Part shown: positions 4,298-14,530 of the stretch, in pieces
How the letters are laid out: each line of letters begins with the position of its first letter
Numbering within the stretch: the first letter of the stretch is position 1
Origin: Ignavibacteriota bacterium
GTDB lineage: Bacteria; Bacteroidota; Ignavibacteria; UBA10030
Length of the DNA: 64,000 bases
Assembly (NCBI GenBank): GCA_963701295.1
Contig: OY969585.1
Span: 1,152,001-1,216,000 of the forward strand
Direction of reading: 5' to 3'
Made by a program: the position numbers and the translations under genes
The notes under the pieces: model-generated
The model's input: only the letters and a program-made list of their open reading frames with translations
Told to the model about the DNA's origin: nothing
The model's database searches: none

Positions 4298-4307
4298 AGC
4301 AATTGCA

Positions 4308-4489
4308 CCCTAACCAGGCGCTCCCGCCCAACAAGACGGCGGGCAAGCAAGCTAACGGTTGCCAGTTGGGTACGTAAATCATGGCGAGCATAGGTTTAGT
4401 GCAAAATTGAAAGTTATCAGCGTGAACTTGTTTCGTTTAGTACAATTTGAAAGTTTTCATTGCCGCAGCTTAGCCGCCATCCGTTAGGT
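4308..4489 (+). repeat. attC site 1 (25-nt hairpin insert in L'')
   Basis: CCCTAAC-CAGGCGCT[insert]CAAGCT ... GCAGCTTAGCCGCCATCC-GTTAGGT. Confidence 0.85.
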
Positions 4490-4540
4490 GGCATTGTGAC
4501 GGGCAGCGGTGCTGGATTCAATCAAAGGATACAATACATA

Positions 4541-5212
4541 ATGAATTCTAAACTACTAAGTATTACTCGTATCGTTAGTTTCATCATGACAATATATATT
4601 TGGCGGGTGGTGCAATTCGCAGAGTTTTCTCAACTCGCAGAGTACACTCTGACCATCGGACCAATTTTGTTTGTTTTTCCAGTTGTCTGGATCGGACGGA
4701 AGGCGGTCAACCTCAAACCGACTTTTGAGCGTGTTGCCTGGATTACGAGCTTTGTTCATATCGTCTTAATGGTTTTCTTTGGTGTATCGATCATCGAAGC
4801 CATCAGACTGTTTCAAATCTCGCGTGGCATCACAATACCATTACCTGTCGAAATTGGAACGGTACTCCTTTATCTTACCGGTGCGTGTTTGTCATTGACC
4901 GTGGTAAATCTCGCATTAAGCGGACTCGGAGCACCATTTGCTATTGCATTGAGCAAGCGTCTTGCAAATCGCTGGATGTATCGTTGGACGAGAAATCCGA
5001 TGGTTTTATGCTGTCTCGCCATGCTTCTATCGGCTGGCATTTATTTACAGTCTCTTTATTTTGTTTTGTGGGTTGTTTTACTTGTAACACCGGCGTGGAT
5101 TTACTTTTTGAAAGTGTATGAAGAGCGCGAGCTTGAAATCCGTTTCGGTGCATCATACTTGGATTACAAAACTAATACTTCTTTTCTCTGGCCAAGAATA
5201 CCGAGGAATTGA
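4541..5212 (+). CDS. Cassette 2: isoprenylcysteine carboxyl methyltransferase (ICMT/PEMT) family membrane protein
   Basis: Multiple TM helices; GLGAP, Y..TRNPM, EERELEIRFG..Y..Y motifs; ATG at 4541 chosen because the longer TTG start lies inside attC1. Confidence 0.8.
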   Translation: MNSKLLSITRIVSFIMTIYIWRVVQFAEFSQLAEYTLTIGPILFVFPVVWIGRKAVNLKPTFERVAWITSFVHIVLMVFFGVSIIEAIRLFQISRGITIPLPVEIGTVLLYLTGACLSLTVVNLALSGLGAPFAIALSKRLANRWMYRWTRNPMVLCCLAMLLSAGIYLQSLYFVLWVVLLVTPAWIYFLKVYEERELEIRFGASYLDYKTNTSFLWPRIPRN

Positions 5213-5234
5213 AATATAATTGTATAACAATGCC

Positions 5235-5454
5235 GCTTAACCAGGCGCTCCCGCCCAACAAGACGGCGGGCAAGCAAGCTGACGGAATGAGCTCATTGCA
5301 ATTAGCATGGCTGGTGGTGGGTTTAAGTTATTATAATTAACTTTTTTGTACCTCGTTGGTTGAGACAAATAAATATGGTTATCAGCATGAACTCGTTTCG
5401 TTTTGTGGTTAATTAAACTTGGTCACGCGGCAGCTTAGCCGCCATCCGTTAGGC
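5235..5454 (+). repeat. attC site 2 (25-nt hairpin insert in L'')
   Basis: GCTTAAC-CAGGCGCT[insert]CAAGCTGAC ... GCAGCTTAGCCGCCATCC-GTTAGGC. Confidence 0.85.
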
Positions 5455-5501
5455 GGCTTCCATAAACTATGGCAGTCAATTAATGAAAAGGGGATCAGAT
5501 A

Positions 5502-7562
5502 ATGAAATTCTTGCTAAGATATTTTGAGAAATTCATATTGTATTTGCAAACCGCCTTTGGGGTGAAACATATTCACACAGTAATCATCCTTTTTCTATTG
5601 TTGATTAACCTAGTGCTGATAGTGGTGGTTTTCCTTCTTTCGAATTCACTCGCCTCTATCTTAACGAATATGGCACTAAATTTCCTACAATTCTTCTTTG
5701 TTGTAGTCCTTTTAGGTGTCATCTTGGGGATCACATCTAATTACTTGTACGACAAAGCTATAGCCGCACTAAATAATCCTATCGGAAGAGCTATAAGCGA
5801 AAGCAGATTGATTAATTACTTCCTACCTGACAAAGAAAGTGAGAAGGAGAGAAGAACAAATTTAACAGTTGAGCGTTTGCCCAGCATGAAAGGCGAAGTT
5901 TGCATATTCGCCATTGCAGCAACAAGCTACCTTCCCAAGAAAGATGATGCAACACGTTTCTCCCAATTATTCATCAGCAAGTTAATTAACAAAGAAATTA
6001 ATTTGCGACTATTATTACTCAATCCCTACAGCCAAGCTTCGAAGTTTAGATATGCGCGAGAAGAAGGTATTGATGTGGATGTTATTTGTGAAAGAGAGAG
6101 GAACGAAATGAGATTTGAGAGATCGGCGCTCTATGGTGACATTGTGAACACTATGGATAAAGTCAAAGAGCTAAGAACTAAAGGGGCCAACATAGAATGC
6201 AGACTTACCAACTTCGAGCCTGCAATATCAATGATGTACACCAGTGACTTTGTTTATATTGATATACTTTCCTTGGGAAGGTTAGATGAAACGACTAAGT
6301 TCACAAAGCAACGAACTACTTTGCCAATCACCGAATTCTCCTCAGATTCTGCGTATTATCAAGTCGCCAAAAGCCATTTTGAATACCATTGGAAATATGG
6401 AATCACACCAGATGAATTTGGTTACTATAAACCCGCTTTACAAGAAAGCTTCTTTGGTTTCTCCTATACGGGCTATAGGTTGATCAAACAGCACGATTCT
6501 TGGATTTCTATTGATCCAGTAGTTGGATGCAACGCGGGTTGTAAATACTGTGTTCTTCAAACAACATTTCGGAATGATATTAAACCGAAAGTCTACGCAA
6601 GTCCGGAGACCATTGGTGATCACCTTCGAGAAAGCAAATTCTATCATGAAGACGAAGTCCTTTGCCTATTCAATTACACTGATGCTCTACTAACCGAAAA
6701 CAAAGAGCGTTTGATAAGTTGTCTTGAGACCCTTAAGGAAAAGCAATTTCGAAATTGGGTATGCATTCCCACAAAACACCCATTTGATGTGAAATTCGCT
6801 CACAAAATAATAGACTCGTATCATCATAACAAGTTGATCTTTCTCATTTCCCTTTCGGGCATGCCAGAAGGATATGAGCCGAGTATTAAATCAGCAGAGA
6901 TTGTTGCCACTATGAAAATGTTGAAAGAACTTAAGATACCACTCATTCACTATTGGAGGCCTGTTACCAAATTAAATTCCAGTGATCAGCATATTGAAAG
7001 TATTTTGGACAAAGTCGATGAGTACGCAAATTGTTCTGTGATTGTTGGCTTAAAGGCTAGCGATGCTCTCAATGACTACTATGTAAATGAGGGGCTTATA
7101 AGTAAGAGTGAATTAAAGGTTCATGGAGATTATTTACCAGAAGGATTCATGAAGAAGGTCAAAAATATTCTGAATCAGAAAGGCAAGGTATATCCTATCT
7201 ATCTTCACGCATCCTGTGCCGTAAGCAAGATAACAAGTCAGCCTGACTATAATGGAACTATGCTCAGAAACGATGTGTGTTCATTGTCTGCTACAGGAGC
7301 CTCATTATGTATTTCAGACCAAGAATCGATATGCCAGAACTTCTTAAAACGCACACAGCAAGAATTTGACAAGACCAAATTCTATGAGATTATTAGAGAG
7401 ATTCTTCCCAGAATGGATATGAAGATTGATGGCAATACGATCGAACTATTGGATCCTGTTTATCAAGAAGATCTTATTTATCTCGTACATCGACTCAGGC
7501 AACCAGTAGTGGCGAAACAGATATTGTACACCAATCAGTATGTTGGTTCAATACTTGCCTAG
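5502..7562 (+). CDS. Cassette 3: 2TM + DUF5919-like domain + radical SAM fusion protein
   Basis: Two N-terminal hydrophobic helices; LRLLLLNPYS..REEG middle domain; SIDPVVGCNAGCKYC (CxxxCxxC) plus extra C-terminal cysteines. Confidence 0.8.
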   Translation: MKFLLRYFEKFILYLQTAFGVKHIHTVIILFLLLINLVLIVVVFLLSNSLASILTNMALNFLQFFFVVVLLGVILGITSNYLYDKAIAALNNPIGRAISESRLINYFLPDKESEKERRTNLTVERLPSMKGEVCIFAIAATSYLPKKDDATRFSQLFISKLINKEINLRLLLLNPYSQASKFRYAREEGIDVDVICERERNEMRFERSALYGDIVNTMDKVKELRTKGANIECRLTNFEPAISMMYTSDFVYIDILSLGRLDETTKFTKQRTTLPITEFSSDSAYYQVAKSHFEYHWKYGITPDEFGYYKPALQESFFGFSYTGYRLIKQHDSWISIDPVVGCNAGCKYCVLQTTFRNDIKPKVYASPETIGDHLRESKFYHEDEVLCLFNYTDALLTENKERLISCLETLKEKQFRNWVCIPTKHPFDVKFAHKIIDSYHHNKLIFLISLSGMPEGYEPSIKSAEIVATMKMLKELKIPLIHYWRPVTKLNSSDQHIESILDKVDEYANCSVIVGLKASDALNDYYVNEGLISKSELKVHGDYLPEGFMKKVKNILNQKGKVYPIYLHASCAVSKITSQPDYNGTMLRNDVCSLSATGASLCISDQESICQNFLKRTQQEFDKTKFYEIIREILPRMDMKIDGNTIELLDPVYQEDLIYLVHRLRQPVVAKQILYTNQYVGSILA

Positions 7563-7604
7563 CGAATTGATGGAAAGACAAACTATGTGAATAAGCAAGT
7601 AACC

Positions 7605-7764
7605 ACCTAACAAATCGTTCAAGCTGACCGTATGAGCGTTAGTACCGATAAGCATGGCTTGCATAGGTTTTGGTTCTTAATAATAAACTTATCAGCATGA
7701 ACTTGTTTCGTTTTGTATATTTTGAAAGTTATCAACGTGGCAACTTAGTTGCCATCCGTTAGGC
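7605..7764 (+). repeat. attC site 3
   Basis: ACCTAAC-AAATCGTTCAAGCTGAC ... GCAACTTAGTTGCCATCC-GTTAGGC. Confidence 0.85.
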
Positions 7765-7793
7765 GGGCAAAAAACAATTACAAATACAGGAGA

Positions 7794-8564
7794 ATGAAAA
7801 TGTATATGCAAAGAAAAAGAATGCTATTCCTTTATTTAATCTTGATGTCAGTCACGATTAACTTACAATCGCAAGATACATCATCAGAACGAAATTCTTT
7901 GAAAGCAGGTGCTTGGGCATTGCAGTTTGGGATTTCCAGTAACTTTACGCTCACATCATTTCAAGGAAGTAATATAGCGTTCAAATATCAATTATCCGAC
8001 AAGAGCGCTCTTCGTGGAGGAATAACAATTAACGGTAGCACTAATGATGGAACCACTTCAAATTCTGGATCAATCGATGATACCAGCTATGGTACTGCTC
8101 CGGGAAGCAGCTCAACGGAATCCGCAACTGCCTCTTTTGTTCTCCAATACTTATGGTATATGAATCCAAACGGCCCCGTACATTTCTACACTGGACTTGG
8201 TCCATTAGTTTCATACAGCTATTCCAAGTATTCCACAAATAATCCTTATTCATCTACTGTATATGATAGCGGAAGTTATCGCGGGTATTGAAATCGAAAT
8301 ATAAGTACTTCAAACTCTACCCAATGGGGATTTGGTGTATCGTGTGTTATTGGCGTCGAATGGTTTGCTTGCCAATGGTTATCCTTGCATGCAGATTACA
8401 ATGAAAGCATCCAATATCGATGGGGTTCGAATTCATCGAATCAAGAATGGTCTTCTTCGACCAGTCCAAATTTTATACCTTCTCAAACTAATAATTCTGG
8501 AACAAGCAAAGGATGGTCTTTAAGCAGTTCTAGCGTTGCATTCGGGCTAAATATATATTTGTAA
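7794..8564 (+). pseudogene. Cassette 4: outer-membrane beta-barrel protein interrupted by an in-frame TGA at 8289-8291
   Basis: Signal peptide after AGGAGA; the same frame continues 90 codons past the TGA (QWGFGVSCVIGVEWF...VAFGLNIYL*), ending 8 nt before attC4. Confidence 0.8.
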
Positions 8565-8572
8565 ATTTGCCC

Positions 8573-8789
8573 GCCTAACCAGGCGCTCAAGCTCTGCTTG
8601 TCCAGAAGAATGAATCACAGCCGGAGGCCTGAGAATGTCATTGCACGAAGTGCAATACAAATTTATTGGATGCAAAATTCATGGCGAGCAAAGGTTGAGT
8701 ACAAATTTGAAAGTTATCAGCATGAACTTGTTTCGTTTAGTGTATTTTGAAAATTATCAGCGCCGCAGCTTAGTTGCCAATCGTTAGGC
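8573..8789 (+). repeat. attC site 4 (about 73-nt insert)
   Basis: GCCTAAC-CAGGCGCTCAAGCT ... GCAGCTTAGTTGCCAATC-GTTAGGC. Confidence 0.85.
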
Positions 8790-8830
8790 AGCAACACAAA
8801 GTATCTTACTAATATAACTAGGAGAAAATA

Positions 8831-9142
8831 ATGACAAACAATCTTACCCCACAGGAAGAAAAGCAACTTCTTGAGATGCTAAAAAACCAGCCGCGAGATA
8901 TTCGTTCTATCAATATTACTGCAAATCTTTTTCTGGTATTTGGTGGTTGTTTTATAGTTGGCACGGCGTTTTATTTACTCAAACACTTTACGGATAATGT
9001 AGCATATTTTGTAGGTCTACCAAATTTCGTTGGAGGGATGATATTGATCGTTAGTTATATTTTGCTTTCGAGGAGAGTAATCCGAATGAAACAGTTAAAC
9101 TCAATATTATCAAAGCTGCATAAAATGATTATTGCTGCCTAA
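8831..9142 (+). CDS. Cassette 5: small 2-TM hypothetical protein
   Basis: AGGAG RBS; stop codon is the TAA of the attC R'' box. Confidence 0.8.
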   Translation: MTNNLTPQEEKQLLEMLKNQPRDIRSINITANLFLVFGGCFIVGTAFYLLKHFTDNVAYFVGLPNFVGGMILIVSYILLSRRVIRMKQLNSILSKLHKMIIAA

Positions 9143-9290
9143 CCAGGCGCTCAAGCTGACGGAATGAGCTGGGTGCGAAATTCATGGCGAGCATAGGTTA
9201 GTACAAGATTGAGAGAACCAGTATGAACTTGTTTCGTTGGTTGCATTACGAAACTTATAAACGCCGCAGCTTAGTGCCTGTCCGTTAGGG
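9137..9290 (+). repeat. attC site 5 (shortest, uninterrupted copy)
   Basis: GCCTAAC-CAGGCGCTCAAGCTGACGG ... CCGCAGCTTAGTGCCTGTCC-GTTAGGG; unpaired C in CTCAAG versus CTTAG matches the L-box extrahelical base. Confidence 0.9.
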
Positions 9291-9313
9291 CTATAATATT
9301 AAAGGAGTTCAAA

Positions 9314-9871
9314 ATGGATAAACATGAATTCTTAAAACAGCAATATATTTCATTACGAGAGGAAATTAAGGAAACTAAGGCACGTATTTTTAAAACCTTA
9401 GGTTTCGGTATTATTGCTGTTCCTGCTGCTAATTTTCTAGGAGAATCCTATCACATTGATGTTGTTATTCTATCGTTACCATTACTTGTCATTGTTCTTG
9501 CATTTCTATATTTATCAGAGAATAATGCTAAGATGAGATGTGGTAGATTTATAAGAATCCATATTGAAAGTTTATTCAAAGATATCCCTGGTTGGGAAAC
9601 CTGGCTTGAAAATCCTGAGGAGGAATATCAAACAAGAATTGTTGATATATATCTTGATGCTTGTTTTTATATCCTATTCTTCATTTACTATGTTGGTTCT
9701 GTTTTTCTTGAAACAAGATTTTCAATTCAAAATTTTCATCTTTTGATTACTGCTATGATACTTGGCTTTTACGTAGCAATTGGTATTTGGTTCTTAATAC
9801 ACTTAATTACACATATTCAAGTCTCTACGACAATTAAAATGGATAAGGACAAATTACAACATAAGCCCTAA
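9314..9871 (+). CDS. Cassette 6: 4-TM hypothetical membrane protein
   Basis: AAGGAG RBS; QYISLREEI helix, TM pair, RCGRFIR..IE, GWE, second TM pair; stop in R''. Confidence 0.8.
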   Translation: MDKHEFLKQQYISLREEIKETKARIFKTLGFGIIAVPAANFLGESYHIDVVILSLPLLVIVLAFLYLSENNAKMRCGRFIRIHIESLFKDIPGWETWLENPEEEYQTRIVDIYLDACFYILFFIYYVGSVFLETRFSIQNFHLLITAMILGFYVAIGIWFLIHLITHIQVSTTIKMDKDKLQHKP

Positions 9872-10082
9872 CCAAGTGCTCAAGCTCGGCTTGTCCAGAA
9901 GAATGCATCACAGCCGGAGGCCTGAGAATGTCATTGCACGAAGTGCAATACAAATTTATTGGATGCAAAATTCATGGCGAGCAAAGGTTGAGTACAAATT
10001 TGAAAGTTTTCAGCATAAACTCGTTTCGTTTTCAGCAACTTGAAATTTATCAGCGCCGCAGCTTAGCGCCGATCCGTTATAC
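9866..10082 (+). repeat. attC site 6 (same about 73-nt insert as attC4)
   Basis: CCCTAAC-CAAGTGCTCAAGCT ... GCAGCTTAGCGCCGATCC-GTTATAC. Confidence 0.85.
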
Positions 10083-10152
10083 CGCTTGCGTTTTAAGGTA
10101 AGTTGGCCGAATTTAGCAACACTATTAATAAAATGAAATAAGGAGATAAACC

Positions 10153-10527
10153 ATGAATATTTTCTTATGGGTTCTTCAAATTCTTCTTGCCTTGCATACC
10201 ATCATGGGTGCAGTTTGGAAGTTTTCCAATTCGGAACAAACCGTACCTTCCTTGAGTACAATTCCTCATGGATTTTGGCTGACGTTGAGCGTCATTGAGC
10301 TGCTTTGTAGTTTGGGTTTGATCCTCCCTGCACTAAATAAGCGACTAGGCGTCCTGGTGCCGGTCGCGGCGGTTTGTATTGCAGCTGAAATGCTGCTCTT
10401 TTCCGGATTGCATATTTACTCCGGTGACACGAATTACAACCAAATGATATATTGGCTCGTCGTGGCTGCCATATGTTCGTTTATTGCTTACGGTAGATTT
10501 GTGTTGAAACCTCTTAGACGTCCTTAA
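10153..10527 (+). CDS. Cassette 7: DoxX-family membrane protein
   Basis: MNIFLWVLQILLA...IELLCSLGLILP...AYGRF pattern; AGGAGA RBS. Confidence 0.85.
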   Translation: MNIFLWVLQILLALHTIMGAVWKFSNSEQTVPSLSTIPHGFWLTLSVIELLCSLGLILPALNKRLGVLVPVAAVCIAAEMLLFSGLHIYSGDTNYNQMIYWLVVAAICSFIAYGRFVLKPLRRP

Positions 10528-10573
10528 ATAAGAAGTCAATCAATATGAGTTATGCAAAAAAATGTCGCAAGCG

Positions 10574-10761
10574 GTATAACCAGGCGCTCAAGCTGACCGG
10601 ATGAGCGCCCGCCCAAAGATAAACATGGCGGGTAAATGGGCACGTTAAGCATGGCGCGTAGAGGTTCAGATGTTTAATAATAAACTTTTCAGCATGAACT
10701 TGTTTCGTATAGTACATATTGAAAGGTATCAGTGGCGCAGCTTATGCGCCATCTGTTAGGG
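10574..10761 (+). repeat. attC site 7 (internal CCCGCC/GGCGGG hairpin insert)
   Basis: GTATAAC-CAGGCGCTCAAGCTGAC ... GCAGCTTATGCGCCATCT-GTTAGGG. Confidence 0.85.
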
Positions 10762-10786
10762 CGCATTCAAAATAAAGGAGAATTAA

Positions 10787-11203
10787 ATAAAAAGTAGAAA
10801 AAAATATATTCCACTCATATTCATTATTCCAGCACTAATACGCTCAATTAATCATCCTCCTCAATTGACATCGGGTTCTATAGGATTATTTGTAGTTATT
10901 CTTCTTTTAGTTGGTTTGTTCGTTTATTTAGAAAAAAGTATGGAGAAAAGAATTCGTAGGTTCGATAGAATCAAAGATCATCGATTCCTCTATATATTAA
11001 GTTTTAGTTTACTTTGCGGCTTACCTCTATCATTGGTATTAACTTGGTCATGGGAGTCTCAAATAAAATTATTGTACGCCATTCTTTTTATTGTATTGCC
11101 GACAGTCGTAATTTTTGGATGGACTGGATTGATGGATTGGAAAGAATGTCAGAAAAAATATCTCGAATTGAAATATTCACAACACGCAAATAATGCGACC
11201 TAA
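10787..11203 (+). CDS. Cassette 8: hypothetical membrane protein (apparent ATA start codon)
   Basis: AAGGAG 6 nt upstream of an in-frame ATA at 10787; frame open to the TAA in R''; first canonical alternative start is TTG 10865. Confidence 0.65.
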   Translation: MKSRKKYIPLIFIIPALIRSINHPPQLTSGSIGLFVVILLLVGLFVYLEKSMEKRIRRFDRIKDHRFLYILSFSLLCGLPLSLVLTWSWESQIKLLYAILFIVLPTVVIFGWTGLMDWKECQKKYLELKYSQHANNAT

Positions 11204-11258
11204 CCAGGCGCTCCCCGAAAAAAGAATTCGGGGCAGGCAAGCTGTCCGAATGAGCATT
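11198..11258 (+). repeat. attC site 8, left half only (25-nt hairpin insert; truncated)
   Basis: ACCTAAC-CAGGCGCT[insert]CAAGCTGTCCGAATGAGC, then similarity is lost; no L'/R' found. Confidence 0.75.
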
Positions 11259-11414
11259 GACTCGCCTCTTTTTTCTTATTTATTATAAGAGTGAATTGAT
11301 GGAATGCGGGAGATGTAATAGTCTATCTCACCGATTGTCGTTCGTTGATCATGATTATTCTTCAGGAGAAGATCAAATGAAAGTGAAAAAAGAAAATGGT
11401 TCTCAGGTGAAACT

Positions 11415-12305
11415 ATGAACAAAGGAGTTTGGTACGCTATCGGAGCTTATGGAAGCTGGGGATTATTACCAATATATTGGAAATTGCTCCATCATGTTCC
11501 TGCATTGCAATTAATCAGCCATCGCATTATATGGTCTTTTCTTGCTCTCATCGTAATTATTCTTTGTATCCGTCAGTGGGCGGGTTTCCGTTCAAAAGTG
11601 TTTTCTTGGAATGTTCTTCGCGTGTACTGTTTAGCAGCGGTGCTGATCGGTGTCAACTGGCTGACGTATGTGTGGGCGGTCAATGCAGGTCATATTGTTG
11701 AATCCAGTCTCGGATATTTCATCAATCCTTTGCTCAGTGTATCTATAGGAGTGTTCTTCCTTCATGAGCATCTGCGCCCGAGGCAATGGATCTCTATCGC
11801 ATTAGCCGCGGCAGGGGTTCTCTTCCTTGCGATAGTTCATGGTTCTATCCCGTGGATCGCTCTCACGCTTGCTTTTTCATTTGCGTTCTACGGCCTCGTA
11901 AAAAAAACAGCGCCGCTCGGTTCGCTGTACGGCTTGACACTGGAAACTGGGATTCTACTACTTCCTGCATTGTTCTTTCTGTTTATTTCTGATATGAACG
12001 GTAGGGGAGCGTTTCTCCACACAGGCACAATGGCTGATATCCTCTTAGCTGGCGCGGGAATCGTCACAACCATCCCGCTGCTGATGTTTGCATCGGCAGC
12101 CCGGCGTATTCCGCTTTCGCTGATAGGTATTCTACAATATATCTCCCCGACGCTGCAGTTTCTTATCGGTGTGTTGATTTATCATGAGTCGTTCACGTTC
12201 ATTCAGTTTATCGGATACGCCATTGTCTGGCTCGCATTGATTCTTTTTGGAGCGGAAAGTTTCTTTGCTTATCGAACACAGATTGCTGTTATGGAACCTG
12301 AATAA
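11415..12305 (+). CDS. rarD: EamA/DMT-family transporter RarD
   Basis: WGLLPIYWK, SLGYFINPLL, GILQYISPTLQF motifs. Confidence 0.92.
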   Translation: MNKGVWYAIGAYGSWGLLPIYWKLLHHVPALQLISHRIIWSFLALIVIILCIRQWAGFRSKVFSWNVLRVYCLAAVLIGVNWLTYVWAVNAGHIVESSLGYFINPLLSVSIGVFFLHEHLRPRQWISIALAAAGVLFLAIVHGSIPWIALTLAFSFAFYGLVKKTAPLGSLYGLTLETGILLLPALFFLFISDMNGRGAFLHTGTMADILLAGAGIVTTIPLLMFASAARRIPLSLIGILQYISPTLQFLIGVLIYHESFTFIQFIGYAIVWLALILFGAESFFAYRTQIAVMEPE

Positions 12306-12442
12306 AAGTATTTATCTTGAAATTTGAACGAGTAAAAAGTAAATTAAGTACCATAACTTCTGAAGTGCTTTAATTTTAGATTGACCGATAATAAGTCAAA
12401 TGGTAGAATCATTCCAATTTTTTCTAAAATGAAAGGAGATAA

Positions 12443-12979
12443 ATGACTGTGAGTGAAAATCTTCAATATCCGATTGGCAAATACAAGAAGCCGGAACACA
12501 TCGACGCGGGACAGAGAGAACGTTTCATTCAGGAAATTGCCGCAGTGCCGAAGGAACTCCGCAAAGCGGTTGAAGGATTGAATGAGTTACAGCTCAACAC
12601 ACCGTATCGCGAAGGCGGCTGGACAGTCCGGCAAGTCGTCCATCATCTTCCCGACAGCCATATAAATGCATACGTACGGCTGAAACTCGCACTGACGGAA
12701 CATGAGCCGGATATTAAGACGTACAAAGAAGCATTATGGGCTGAGCTTCCCGATGTGAAGACGGTTCCGATTGAAATCTCATTGGCTCTTCTTGATGCGC
12801 TCCATGCGCGATTGATTGCCTGCCTGCGGGGCCTTGATAGTGATGCATTTGAAAAGAAATTTCGACATCCTGCAATGGGCCTTATGTCCCTGAACGAACA
12901 ACTGGCGCTCTATGCGTGGCATGGGAAGCATCATGTCGCTCATATCACAAGCCTGCGGCAGCGTATGGGATGGAAATGA
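12443..12979 (+). CDS. bstA: YfiT/BstA-family (DinB superfamily) bacillithiol transferase-like protein
   Basis: LQYPIG, TPYREGGWTVRQVVHHLPDSH, YAWHGKHHVAHI. Confidence 0.85.
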   Translation: MTVSENLQYPIGKYKKPEHIDAGQRERFIQEIAAVPKELRKAVEGLNELQLNTPYREGGWTVRQVVHHLPDSHINAYVRLKLALTEHEPDIKTYKEALWAELPDVKTVPIEISLALLDALHARLIACLRGLDSDAFEKKFRHPAMGLMSLNEQLALYAWHGKHHVAHITSLRQRMGWK

Positions 12980-13006
12980 TTATGGTTTTGAAATTCATTT
13001 TGGGAA

Positions 13007-13447
13007 ATGGCAATGACTGAATTACCGATTACCTATCGCGGTGTTGTCCATCCATGGCAGTGCGATCTGATGGGGCATATGAATGTCGTGTGGTATGTAA
13101 GTAAGTTTGACGACGCAGCGTGGCAGCTTTTTGCGATGATGGGGCTGGATGTCAGCTATTTTAACCGCACGCACTGCGGTGTCGCCGCACTTCAGCAAAA
13201 CATTACATACAAGGCAGAAATCCATCCCGGAAGCACAGTCACCATTCGTTCGGGCATTCTTGAACTCAAAGAGAAAACCGTCCGGTTCGTCCACGAAATG
13301 CGCAATGATGCAACCGGAGAAATCGCCGCTGTGATGGAGTTGACAGCCGTGCATTTCAACATGAAAAAAAGAAAATCATGCCCATTTCCTGCGGCAACGG
13401 CAAAACGCAGTAGGAATCTGATTGTGCAGTACGATGCAGAAACTTAA
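13007..13447 (+). CDS. Acyl-CoA thioesterase (hot-dog fold, 4HBT-like)
   Basis: VHPWQCDLMGHMNV..Y...FD motif. Confidence 0.85.
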   Translation: MAMTELPITYRGVVHPWQCDLMGHMNVVWYVSKFDDAAWQLFAMMGLDVSYFNRTHCGVAALQQNITYKAEIHPGSTVTIRSGILELKEKTVRFVHEMRNDATGEIAAVMELTAVHFNMKKRKSCPFPAATAKRSRNLIVQYDAET

Positions 13448-13633
13448 ACGTTAAAAAAGAAAGCTGGTGCTCACTCTGCCTTTTAAGACTATATAATCTT
13501 CATTTCCATATTTCTCGGCAAGCCGACGTGGAATGCAATTTGAGTTAACAGAATTGTTTAACAAGCCAGATGAGCTCGACATCTTCTAAGTGTGGTGTGA
13601 TAATATATATCGCACAAAAAGAGGGAGTACGTT

Positions 13634-14293
13634 ATGAATTACATGAAGATATTTCTGTATTCACAATTGATCATTTGTTTAGCTCTTCTCAGCTTTTTTG
13701 ATCTCCTTGTCATCGCAAATGGTATTTTTAAAATCGTTTTGAAAACGAATCCCCCAATTGATAAAGACACTAAGATTCTTGGCTCGTCAAATACATCAAA
13801 CAGTAATTCAGAAGTTCATAATTCAACCTTAATATCTATTCTTCTGAAGTATTTGGCAATAGATGCTAACCAATTATCGCAACAAAAAAATAGTATAATT
13901 CAAATTCGCCTTTTCTATGCGGCAATCCTAACGGGGCTTGTGTCATATCTATTTAGCAGTAATAATCCCTTGATCGCATTGTTTATTTTGTTTTTAATTC
14001 TAATAATGTATTTATTAGAAGTACACTTTAATGACTTAATAAATAGGAGTGAGATAGGTTACTTTATCATGCGCAAAGCAGTTGAACGGTTAATTAACTT
14101 GAAGCCGAAAAATAATAAATGGTATATTCTAAATTTTAAATCTCTTCTTAAACAGCAGGAGAATGCTAGTAATCATAGATGGCGGAGAAAATTCTTCTCT
14201 GCTTGTAATCCAAATATCGAGCAAATAATATTCTACTGTATTCCTTGGCTTGGGATAAGTTTATATCTAATTTATTTAATAATAATTAAATGA
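13634..14293 (+). CDS. AT-rich hypothetical membrane protein (probable former cassette)
   Basis: 219-aa ORF with several TM helices; GAGGGAG RBS; followed by an attC remnant. Confidence 0.7.
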   Translation: MNYMKIFLYSQLIICLALLSFFDLLVIANGIFKIVLKTNPPIDKDTKILGSSNTSNSNSEVHNSTLISILLKYLAIDANQLSQQKNSIIQIRLFYAAILTGLVSYLFSSNNPLIALFILFLILIMYLLEVHFNDLINRSEIGYFIMRKAVERLINLKPKNNKWYILNFKSLLKQQENASNHRWRRKFFSACNPNIEQIIFYCIPWLGISLYLIYLIIIK

Positions 14294-14360
14294 CTATCAA
14301 TTGATAGGTCTCTCGGTTGGAGATATACAATCACTAAGTTTGAGTGTATTTAAATAAAAA

Positions 14361-14530
14361 TCGGCAGTCCGAACAAGCGTCGGTGTGTTAACCATGGCTT
14401 ACAAACGTGCACTACATAATTGTGAGCCAGAAGCTTATGAGCCTTTTGCCTCAAAAAATGATGTGAATGAACTTGTTTCTGTTAGTACATTATTTGTAAT
14501 TTGTCAGCGGCGCAAGCAACTCAAGCTGAG
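14361..14530 (+). repeat. Degenerate attC remnant
   Basis: CCGAACAAGCG start; internal CATGGCTT, ATGAACTTGTTTC-TGTTAGTACA and TCAGCGGCGCA match the interiors of attC1-7. Confidence 0.6.

Follow-up and report, generated by a model that had tools for sequence, protein, structure and literature searches.

A single-gene integron cassette fusing two predicted transmembrane helices, a PLD-fold domain and a radical SAM domain: a candidate anti-phage switch

The stretch of DNA analysed here, called the window, is 64,000 nt long and comes from an Ignavibacteriota bacterium (assembly GCA_963701295.1, contig OY969585.1, positions 1,152,001–1,216,000, forward strand). It contains an uninterrupted open reading frame (ORF), running from ATG to TAG and encoding a protein of 686 aa, in which two predicted transmembrane (TM) helices precede a PLD-fold domain devoid of its catalytic motif (pseudo-PLD) and a radical SAM domain (Table 1). 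An earlier reading of the sequence, referred to below as the original prediction, had described this ORF as a three-part fusion carried by a single-gene integron cassette, and proposed it as a candidate anti-phage or nucleotide-modifying system.

Table 1. Positions in the window of the cassette's features and of the parts of its protein
Feature	Position	Strand	Basis
ORF, two TM helices (2TM) + pseudo-PLD (DUF5919-like) + spore photoproduct lyase (SPL)-like radical SAM, 686 aa	5502..7562	+	ORF list, homologues, model
attC-like site of the preceding cassette; its GTTAGGC core at 5448 opens the cassette of the ORF	5235..5454	+	repeat family; bottom-strand fold z −2.69
attC-like site of the ORF's cassette; ACCTAAC at 7605, GTTAGGC at 7758	7605..7764	+	repeat family, bottom-strand fold
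Two predicted TM helices (about residues 24–47 and 53–84), variable module	5571..5753	+	hydropathy; model; swapped in relatives
PLD-superfamily fold without catalytic HxK, residues 91–315	5772..6446	+	model, VIA-align, Foldseek, alignment columns
Radical SAM domain, SPL-like (COG1533-type) branch, uncharacterised subfamily with TD and WRP motifs	6450..7559	+	Pfam, VIA-align, family profiles
CxxxCxYC (C343, C347, C350), predicted SAM-binding [4Fe-4S] site	6528..6551	+	conserved cysteines
Four further conserved cysteines (C572, C593, C603, C611), predicted second metal site	7215..7334	+	70/70 family rows

The ORF lies alone between the two attC-like sites. The bottom strand of the downstream site pairs both cores with a fold z of −2.34, and five of 200 shuffled sequences folded equally well; a 150-nt fold without the right-hand core was unstructured (z 0.02). 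Measured from core to core, the cassette spans 2.3 kb and not the 2.1 kb announced earlier. Its GC content is 38.3% versus 42.4% for the genome, at the 7.6th percentile among equal-sized windows, so that the AT-richness claimed for it is real and mild.

The flanking repeat family has seven copies within positions 4418–10760 of the window, and nhmmer found 167 matches to it across the 3.64-Mb genome, in many separate arrays. A single integron integrase exceeded the cut-off in this genome (453 bits versus 265, at 3,566,721), and it adjoins another array of the same repeat, whereas the array of the window has no integrase of its own. Because of these 167 matches in arrays, and of the one integrase beside another array, the window array is an integrase-free cassette cluster in a genome with a large chromosomal integron. 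The elements of an integron gene cassette were thus all found, namely a single gene between a core site and an attC with its inverse core, and an IntI elsewhere in the genome, which confirms this part of the original prediction. The gene is single-copy in its own genome and was found in none of the 15 same-genus genomes searched; together with searches of the phylum, this describes a rare, sporadic gene. Defence genes encoded in integron cassettes are described in 10.1101/2024.07.02.601719.

Three domains of the cassette protein

The N-terminal part shows two hydrophobic segments, with Kyte-Doolittle peaks of 3.56 and 2.54, modelled as helices at residues 24–47 and 53–90, in agreement with the TM pair that had been announced. 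Residues 91–315 folded alone with a pLDDT of 86. Comparison of this model by VIA-align gave NucT (Z 11.8, root-mean-square deviation (rmsd) 3.0, 144 residues aligned), FAM83B (Z 11.6) and TrmBL2 (Z 10.4). All 26 rows with Z of at least 5 are PLD-fold by their titles, the next row scored 4.6, and Foldseek agreed. In the model, the middle domain is therefore of the PLD/Nuc fold.

Inspection of the alignment revealed no His or Lys in columns 240–245 in any of 29 aligned rows. This is the place, deduced from strand order, of the strand that should carry HxK; we take the HxK(x)4D motif before the central hairpin to mark the catalytic PLD/HKD site. The HWK found at residues 296–298 falls on the last helix of the domain. 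An active PLD nuclease or lipase was ruled out by the missing HxK, and the domain is likely inactive. Eight residues are nevertheless invariant in it (R118, Y143, N174, P175, K181, R234, G259 and W297).

The original prediction had called this domain DUF5919-like by eye. The DUF5919 model (PF19319) gave 12.5 bits at residues 157–193, below the gathering score of 23.5, and this was its sole match in the whole genome. Four distant relatives scored 23.0, 18.5, 16.4 and 14.6 bits, and none of 12 close homologues matched at E up to 1. The call thus appears fair as a likeness, consistent with the PLD fold and the sub-threshold scores, every protein scored being below the Pfam cut-off. DUF5919 itself and further non-catalytic domains of PLD fold, such as FAM83 and the effector-binding domain of TrmB, share with it a PLD fold without HxK; the pseudo-PLD studied here differs from them in being coupled to a radical SAM domain. 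Our literature search returned no paper containing the term DUF5919. Relatives of the middle domain were found neither in plasmids, nor in 63 stand-alone radical SAM loci, nor elsewhere in the same genome, and a word-indexed search with this domain alone returned one truncated fusion.

Residues 317–686 form a radical SAM barrel, with radical SAM enzymes as top VIA-align rows: PFL-activating enzyme came first (Z 13.9, rmsd 3.2, 207 residues aligned), and SPL (Z 12.7) and viperin (Z 12.3) were also aligned. The checks of structure proposed earlier for each domain therefore yielded a PLD fold and a radical SAM barrel. Pfam Radical_SAM (PF04055) matched at E 0.0014, with 19.3 bits versus a gathering score of 29.5; 11 of 12 close homologues also matched weakly, and the radical SAM relative of locus L075, the best metagenome match, passed the gathering score with 31.9 bits. 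A search of PDB sequences gave nothing useful for the window protein, and a best E of 0.0075 for the family profile.

The motifs quoted in the original prediction were all found, in the middle domain (RLLLLNPYS at residues 169–177, REEG, HFEYHW) as well as in the barrel (CNAGCKYC and the four further cysteines). CxxxCxYC is present in all 36 PLD-linked and all 101 stand-alone sequences, and the complete signature of the subfamily (CxxxCxYC, TD, WRP and the four extra cysteines) in 70 of 70 rows, with C343 in 69 since one row starts inside the motif. Six PA0069-like ORFs served as outgroup for this alignment. In all six, residues identical to T393, D394, T424 and P487 were aligned, which are thus SPL-like barrel positions, whereas WRP and the four extra cysteines were missing. 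Within the PLD-linked set, CxxxCxxC, WRP and C572 were intact in 36 of 36 sequences, C593 and C603 were unaligned in eight rows, and the last three cysteines were shifted to the C-terminus in P0047 and P0064, the two such rows inspected. In these two and other kinase-fused forms, a small domain that in the window protein comes after the four-cysteine site seems to be inserted between the first and the last three cysteines.

Named families came close at a distance. The PA0069 model matched four of 18 members (best E 3e-9) and the Rv2578c model eight of 18 (3.4e-4), below the curated cut-offs, and the window protein matched neither. Weak matches were also obtained with rSAM_mob_pairB and with Pfam SPL (best E 0.016, 3 of 12 homologues, below cut-off). 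A profile of the fusion retrieved a PA0069-like protein at E 1.8e-6 per genome, and the searches of relatives and of the phylum returned PA0069-like background only, in 3 of 101 and 8 of 401 genomes, the genome under study being counted. No viperin model of PADLOC or NCBIfam matched the window protein or its relatives at E up to 1. The placement in an SPL-like rather than a viperin-like branch was therefore upheld, by the shared TD, T and P positions, the weak PA0069 and Rv2578c matches and the viperin models. Viperin was ruled out by family models and motifs; judged by the family models, the protein is not an SPL either, as no curated cut-off was reached.

These distant affinities raise the question of a stress or repair enzyme of SPL-like type whose substrates would be damaged or modified DNA or nucleotides; such an enzyme would be anchored in the membrane, carry a regulatory domain and play no part against phages. 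Besides the named families, the JGI product name 'DNA repair photolyase' on three homologues and one plasmid relative located near Ku and a DNA polymerase III alpha gene point in this direction. We consider it very unlikely. The SPL-like scores stay far under cut-off, the protein has a WRP motif and four cysteines that the PA0069-like outgroup lacks, and the gene is rare and sporadic; a repair role would also leave unexplained the exchange of TIR, DUF4062, kinase and TM modules described below.

A conserved core with exchanged front ends

Eleven close relatives, sharing 43–83% identity with the window protein, have the whole arrangement or part of it, and the arrangement is therefore not due to chance. 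Two of them carry the label of Asgard archaeal bins, their contigs being 2.2 and 3.9 kb long. A whole-library search with the complete protein returned 373 representatives (50% identity) at E 0.001. The best 150 of these 373 were considered, and 146 proteins were examined: 144 new ones and, in addition, the two of L075. The pseudo-PLD and radical SAM core, in the same order, was present in 24 of the 146. The middle-domain profile gave 17 matches in a first round and 26 in a second, in which the profile included the first-round matches; three are weak (E 1e-4 to 8e-4).

Front ends of these 24 cores are diverse: a TCAD9/APH kinase in nine, TM helices in five, DUF4062 in three, TIR in two, a nucleoside deoxyribosyltransferase in one, a calcineurin-like phosphoesterase in one, and none or a truncated one in two. 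The last core has a front end that looks cyclase-like by eye, without Pfam match. P0024 is, also by eye, a third TIR fusion, not caught by the middle-domain profile, and P0098 has an additional, weakly matched HD domain at its C-terminus. The three-part fusion of the original prediction was thus correct; what that prediction had overlooked is that the conserved core carries at least six exchangeable N-terminal modules, 2TM being one of them.

In L075 the same parts occur as a gene pair, the stop codon of a TIR and pseudo-PLD gene overlapping the start of the radical SAM gene. Pairwise, its middle domain shares 21% identity with that of the window protein (E 0.037, weak alone), and the motifs are collinear. 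Scored on the middle-domain profile, the C-terminal part of the TIR and pseudo-PLD protein reached 10.6 bits, whereas the best of 2000 shuffled sequences reached 5.9; on the round-2 profile its E was 1.6e-18. The Glu of W-x-x-x-E, presumably the catalytic Glu of TIR domains, is kept in the four TIR domains examined. A FastTree tree of 153 sequences places the TM front ends, and likewise the TIR front ends, on at least three separate branches. PADLOC 2.0.0 matched 15 relatives, in their N-terminal modules only, with effector-type models (TIR of SAVED-TIR, ThsB and Argonaute systems; 'Effector' models; PDC-S60), and its sole match in the window protein was a weak MTase_II (E 5e-4). The PADLOC check proposed at the outset therefore found effector-type modules in the relatives and no system model on the core.

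A protein family with a pseudo-PLD and radical SAM core and interchangeable front ends is apparently undescribed. No account of this core was found in the literature searched, which consisted mostly of open papers, with supplements outside its scope, and a large defence-prediction table could hold it. The architecture appears to be new, being covered by no library or paper searched; the function discussed below is inferred.

Two further features were observed in the same protein set. C-terminal extensions of 180–330 residues, without Pfam match at E 1e-4, are present in P0040, P0041, P0045, P0074, P0092, P0097, P0107, P0119, P0125, P0149, P0152 and P0162. P0060 and P0076 have an NTP_transferase nucleotidyltransferase ahead of a radical SAM domain, without pseudo-PLD.

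Stand-alone relatives of the radical SAM domain were found in 36 plasmid records, 44 genome loci and 18 metagenome loci, and none in the phage collections searched. Among 81 such loci taken, 72 are at least 5 kb long. In 55 of these 72, at least one nucleotide-handling enzyme lies beside the radical SAM gene, a count that is a description and not a statistic, because the queries came from the same loci and many loci are related Streptomyces. The neighbours were MazG-like (29 loci), NUDIX (22), NMP kinase (17), dCTP deaminase (14), DEDDh exonuclease (13), an AAA_28 P-loop protein (13), thymidylate synthase (5), NDK (5) and HD (4). The MazG-like domain, a separate neighbouring gene in many loci, is fused N-terminal to radical SAM in L039 (5449–7122), L077, L078 and P0140. 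In 4 of 19 annotated plasmid regions the stand-alone operon adjoins anti-phage genes, with one region each for dGTPase and TIR, Shedu and ABC-three-component, CBASS, and ABC-three-component. The mobile, conflict-type context that had been predicted was thus recovered, in the cassette itself and in the defence islands of some stand-alone relatives. Core metabolic operons, named at the outset as a setting that would speak against defence, were not seen among the stand-alone loci.

One recurrent operon combines radical SAM, DEDDh exonuclease and AAA_28 (L007, L010, L012, L013–L016, L018–L021; Alphaproteobacteria and Actinomycetota), to which HD, aldo-keto reductase, thymidylate synthase, NDK or MazG may be added. 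Defence islands harbour four of its copies, and the operon is by itself a candidate system.

A second recurrent group consists of 15 Streptomyces loci with a glycosyltransferase, a class II aldolase, a MurA-like enolpyruvyl transferase and a stand-alone radical SAM (L006, L009, L022, L036, L038, L040–L042, L045–L047, L049, L052–L054). The transferase and aldolase are present in 14 of the 17 loci left aside by the nucleotide-handling count, and the group presumably recalls the enolpyruvyl-UMP step of peptidyl nucleoside pathways.

These 15 loci look biosynthetic, as do 14 loci with dCTP deaminase, kinase and sugar-nucleotide enzymes, and together with the lack of relatives in phages they are what would favour a role other than anti-phage: a conflict protein directed at other mobile DNA or competing cells, or the remnant of a nucleoside natural-product enzyme in a regulatory fusion. 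A one-gene cassette cannot supply such a pathway, however, and the N-terminal modules are immune-type domains, so that we regard this explanation as improbable.

A candidate switch and its rivals

Some role in conflict, taken overall, is quite probable. More precisely, and tentatively, the protein may be a self-contained anti-phage switch, in which a nucleotide-based trigger core commands a variable N-terminal effector, here a membrane-damaging 2TM module; this possibility stays somewhat short of probable. The radical SAM domain would act on a nucleotide or nucleotide-containing substrate, as suggested by the nucleotide kinases, MazG, NUDIX, dCTP deaminase, thymidylate synthase and exonucleases with which its stand-alone relatives travel. 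Its product, or the substrate-bound state, would then be read by the adjacent pseudo-PLD, with its catalytic motif lost and its invariant residues kept. Such reading would cluster the N-terminal module, and clustered 2TM would arrest the infected cell by damaging its membrane. In relatives, the clustered module would be a TIR, a DUF4062 or deoxyribosyltransferase-type hydrolase, a kinase or a phosphoesterase.

A trigger with a variable effector is the best reading because the fixed core bears many unrelated front ends, most of them known conflict effectors. The core fusions among the 146 proteins, the split form of L075, the conserved TIR Glu, the effector-type PADLOC matches, the scattering of TM and TIR over several branches, the absence of the cassette from same-genus genomes and the defence neighbours on plasmids all count in its favour. 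PMC7159879 lists TIR, DRHyd and calcineurin-like domains among the variable effectors of conflict systems, and 10.64898/2026.10.19.760177 reports TIR fused to an inactive HKD domain in antiviral neighbourhoods.

Several observations weigh against such a switch. Cassette status alone is weak evidence, because neighbouring cassettes of the array resemble ordinary adaptive genes by Pfam (DoxX, PEMT, BNR). In the FastTree tree the PLD-linked radical SAM domains do not form one clade; they are interleaved with 84 sequences without pseudo-PLD in the same protein, for only nine of which the gene context was seen. No PADLOC 2.0.0 model matches the core, and scans of GTDB genomes, metagenomes and viral contigs with the fusion alignment found no DNA around fused homologues. 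Of all branches, the one holding the four defence-island loci is the most distant from the fusion, and 15 of the 19 plasmid regions are without a clearly annotated anti-phage gene. Turnover by SAM-radical chemistry is slow and sensitive to oxygen, awkward properties in a trigger that has to be fast. Finally, domains of the TIR, cyclase and kinase types may also serve to receive signals, in which case the direction would be reversed.

In that reversed arrangement, the N-terminal module would take in the signal, be it membrane stress, phosphorylation or a TIR or cyclase signal. The pseudo-PLD would serve as a regulatory latch, and the radical SAM domain would deliver the output by producing, in the manner of viperins, a nucleotide analogue that is toxic or terminates chains. 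The stand-alone relatives neighbour enzymes able to activate or remove an abnormal nucleotide in the 55 loci counted above, MazG-like and radical SAM domains are fused in L039 and P0140, and the relative with the cyclase-like N-terminus would suit an input. Since no detoxifying partner is present in the cassette, a latch would be required if the enzyme is toxic. A precedent is thmABC (PMC12691670), in which radical SAM, kinase and triphosphatase lead to 4'-thiothymidine and thmC confers resistance. We find this direction, the chief rival of the switch, somewhat unlikely, since variable effectors usually show just this pattern of many unrelated modules on one fixed core, and since effector-type models match the front ends found here. 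Moreover, the cassette holds no kinase or detoxifying partner, and a search of the genome at E 1e-5 for homologues of the partner genes (MazG-like, NUDIX or kinase) found none.

Comparison with described systems sets the trigger-and-effector protein apart from each. Prokaryotic viperins (pVips) and Ophion resemble it by their radical SAM enzyme, a proposed anti-phage role and nucleotide chemistry, and by the kinase neighbours of the stand-alone relatives. Unlike viperins, the window protein has the SPL-like TD and WRP motifs and four extra cysteines, and shares 9–16% identity with viperin in structure matches; it is also distinguished from both by the absence of a PADLOC viperin match and by its fusion to a pseudo-PLD and a variable module. 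Ophion (10.1101/2025.09.30.679545) consists of the OpnA radical SAM, a PHP and a PRTase, and the cassette has neither partner. HXS (PMC13128918) was also judged different. SPL, PA0069, Rv2578c and rSAM_mob_pairB are the nearest named branch, from which the family is separated by its own clade, its WRP and C-terminal four-cysteine site, its fused domains, and a repair context in one locus only.

The gene logic of thmABC and AbmM (PMC12691670), with a radical SAM, a nucleoside kinase and a nucleoside triphosphatase, is that of the stand-alone relatives, likened by gene content; the cassette has neither kinase nor triphosphatase, and thmABC is an antibiotic pathway. CBASS, Pycsar and Thoeris likewise exchange 2TM- or TIR-type modules on a small conserved domain. 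No CD-NTase, SAVED, STING, CNBD, SLOG or Macro domain is found here, and the constant part is a pseudo-PLD and a radical SAM domain, usually on one polypeptide. If the trigger-and-effector reading is right, the logic would be like that of CBASS, Pycsar or Thoeris, with different parts.

To our knowledge, nucleotidyltransferases, cyclases, TIR domains and a few other enzymes are the sources of the immune second messengers described to date, and the radical SAM enzymes with a known part in defence either produce antiviral nucleotides or serve to mature a protein. The combination of radical SAM, pseudo-PLD and interchangeable effectors would, as far as we know, fit neither pattern. A radical SAM enzyme making a modified-nucleotide second messenger, with the pseudo-PLD as its receptor and a swappable effector, on one polypeptide or as a gene pair, would be a new class of bacterial immune signalling; this specific form of the switch is unlikely. 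If true, it would give DUF5919-like domains a function. Signalling in either direction would bring testable new chemistry to a radical SAM subfamily that is uncharacterised and counts 373 representatives, and a first role to DUF5919-like domains. Cloning is straightforward for the single-gene form, and NAD+ provides a simple read-out for the TIR versions.

Other features of the array

The window array (4366–14514) and the other arrays of the genome constitute a large store of unstudied cassettes. The attC-like site upstream of the ORF is long (about 220 bases), and it carries an additional palindrome of 55 nt (family D11) that is also present in two further sites, at 4304–4358 and 11194–11248. 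The attC regions 8574–8786 and 9867–10079 are 91% identical over 213 bases, closer to each other than to other copies. At 7749–8400 the next cassette has its stop at 8291, yet protein-like sequence with alternating hydrophobic residues runs on in another frame; by eye this segment resembles a frameshifted outer-membrane barrel gene. Two multi-TM ORFs, at 9314–9871 and 13634–14293, gave no convincing Pfam, PADLOC or NCBIfam match and may be membrane effectors.

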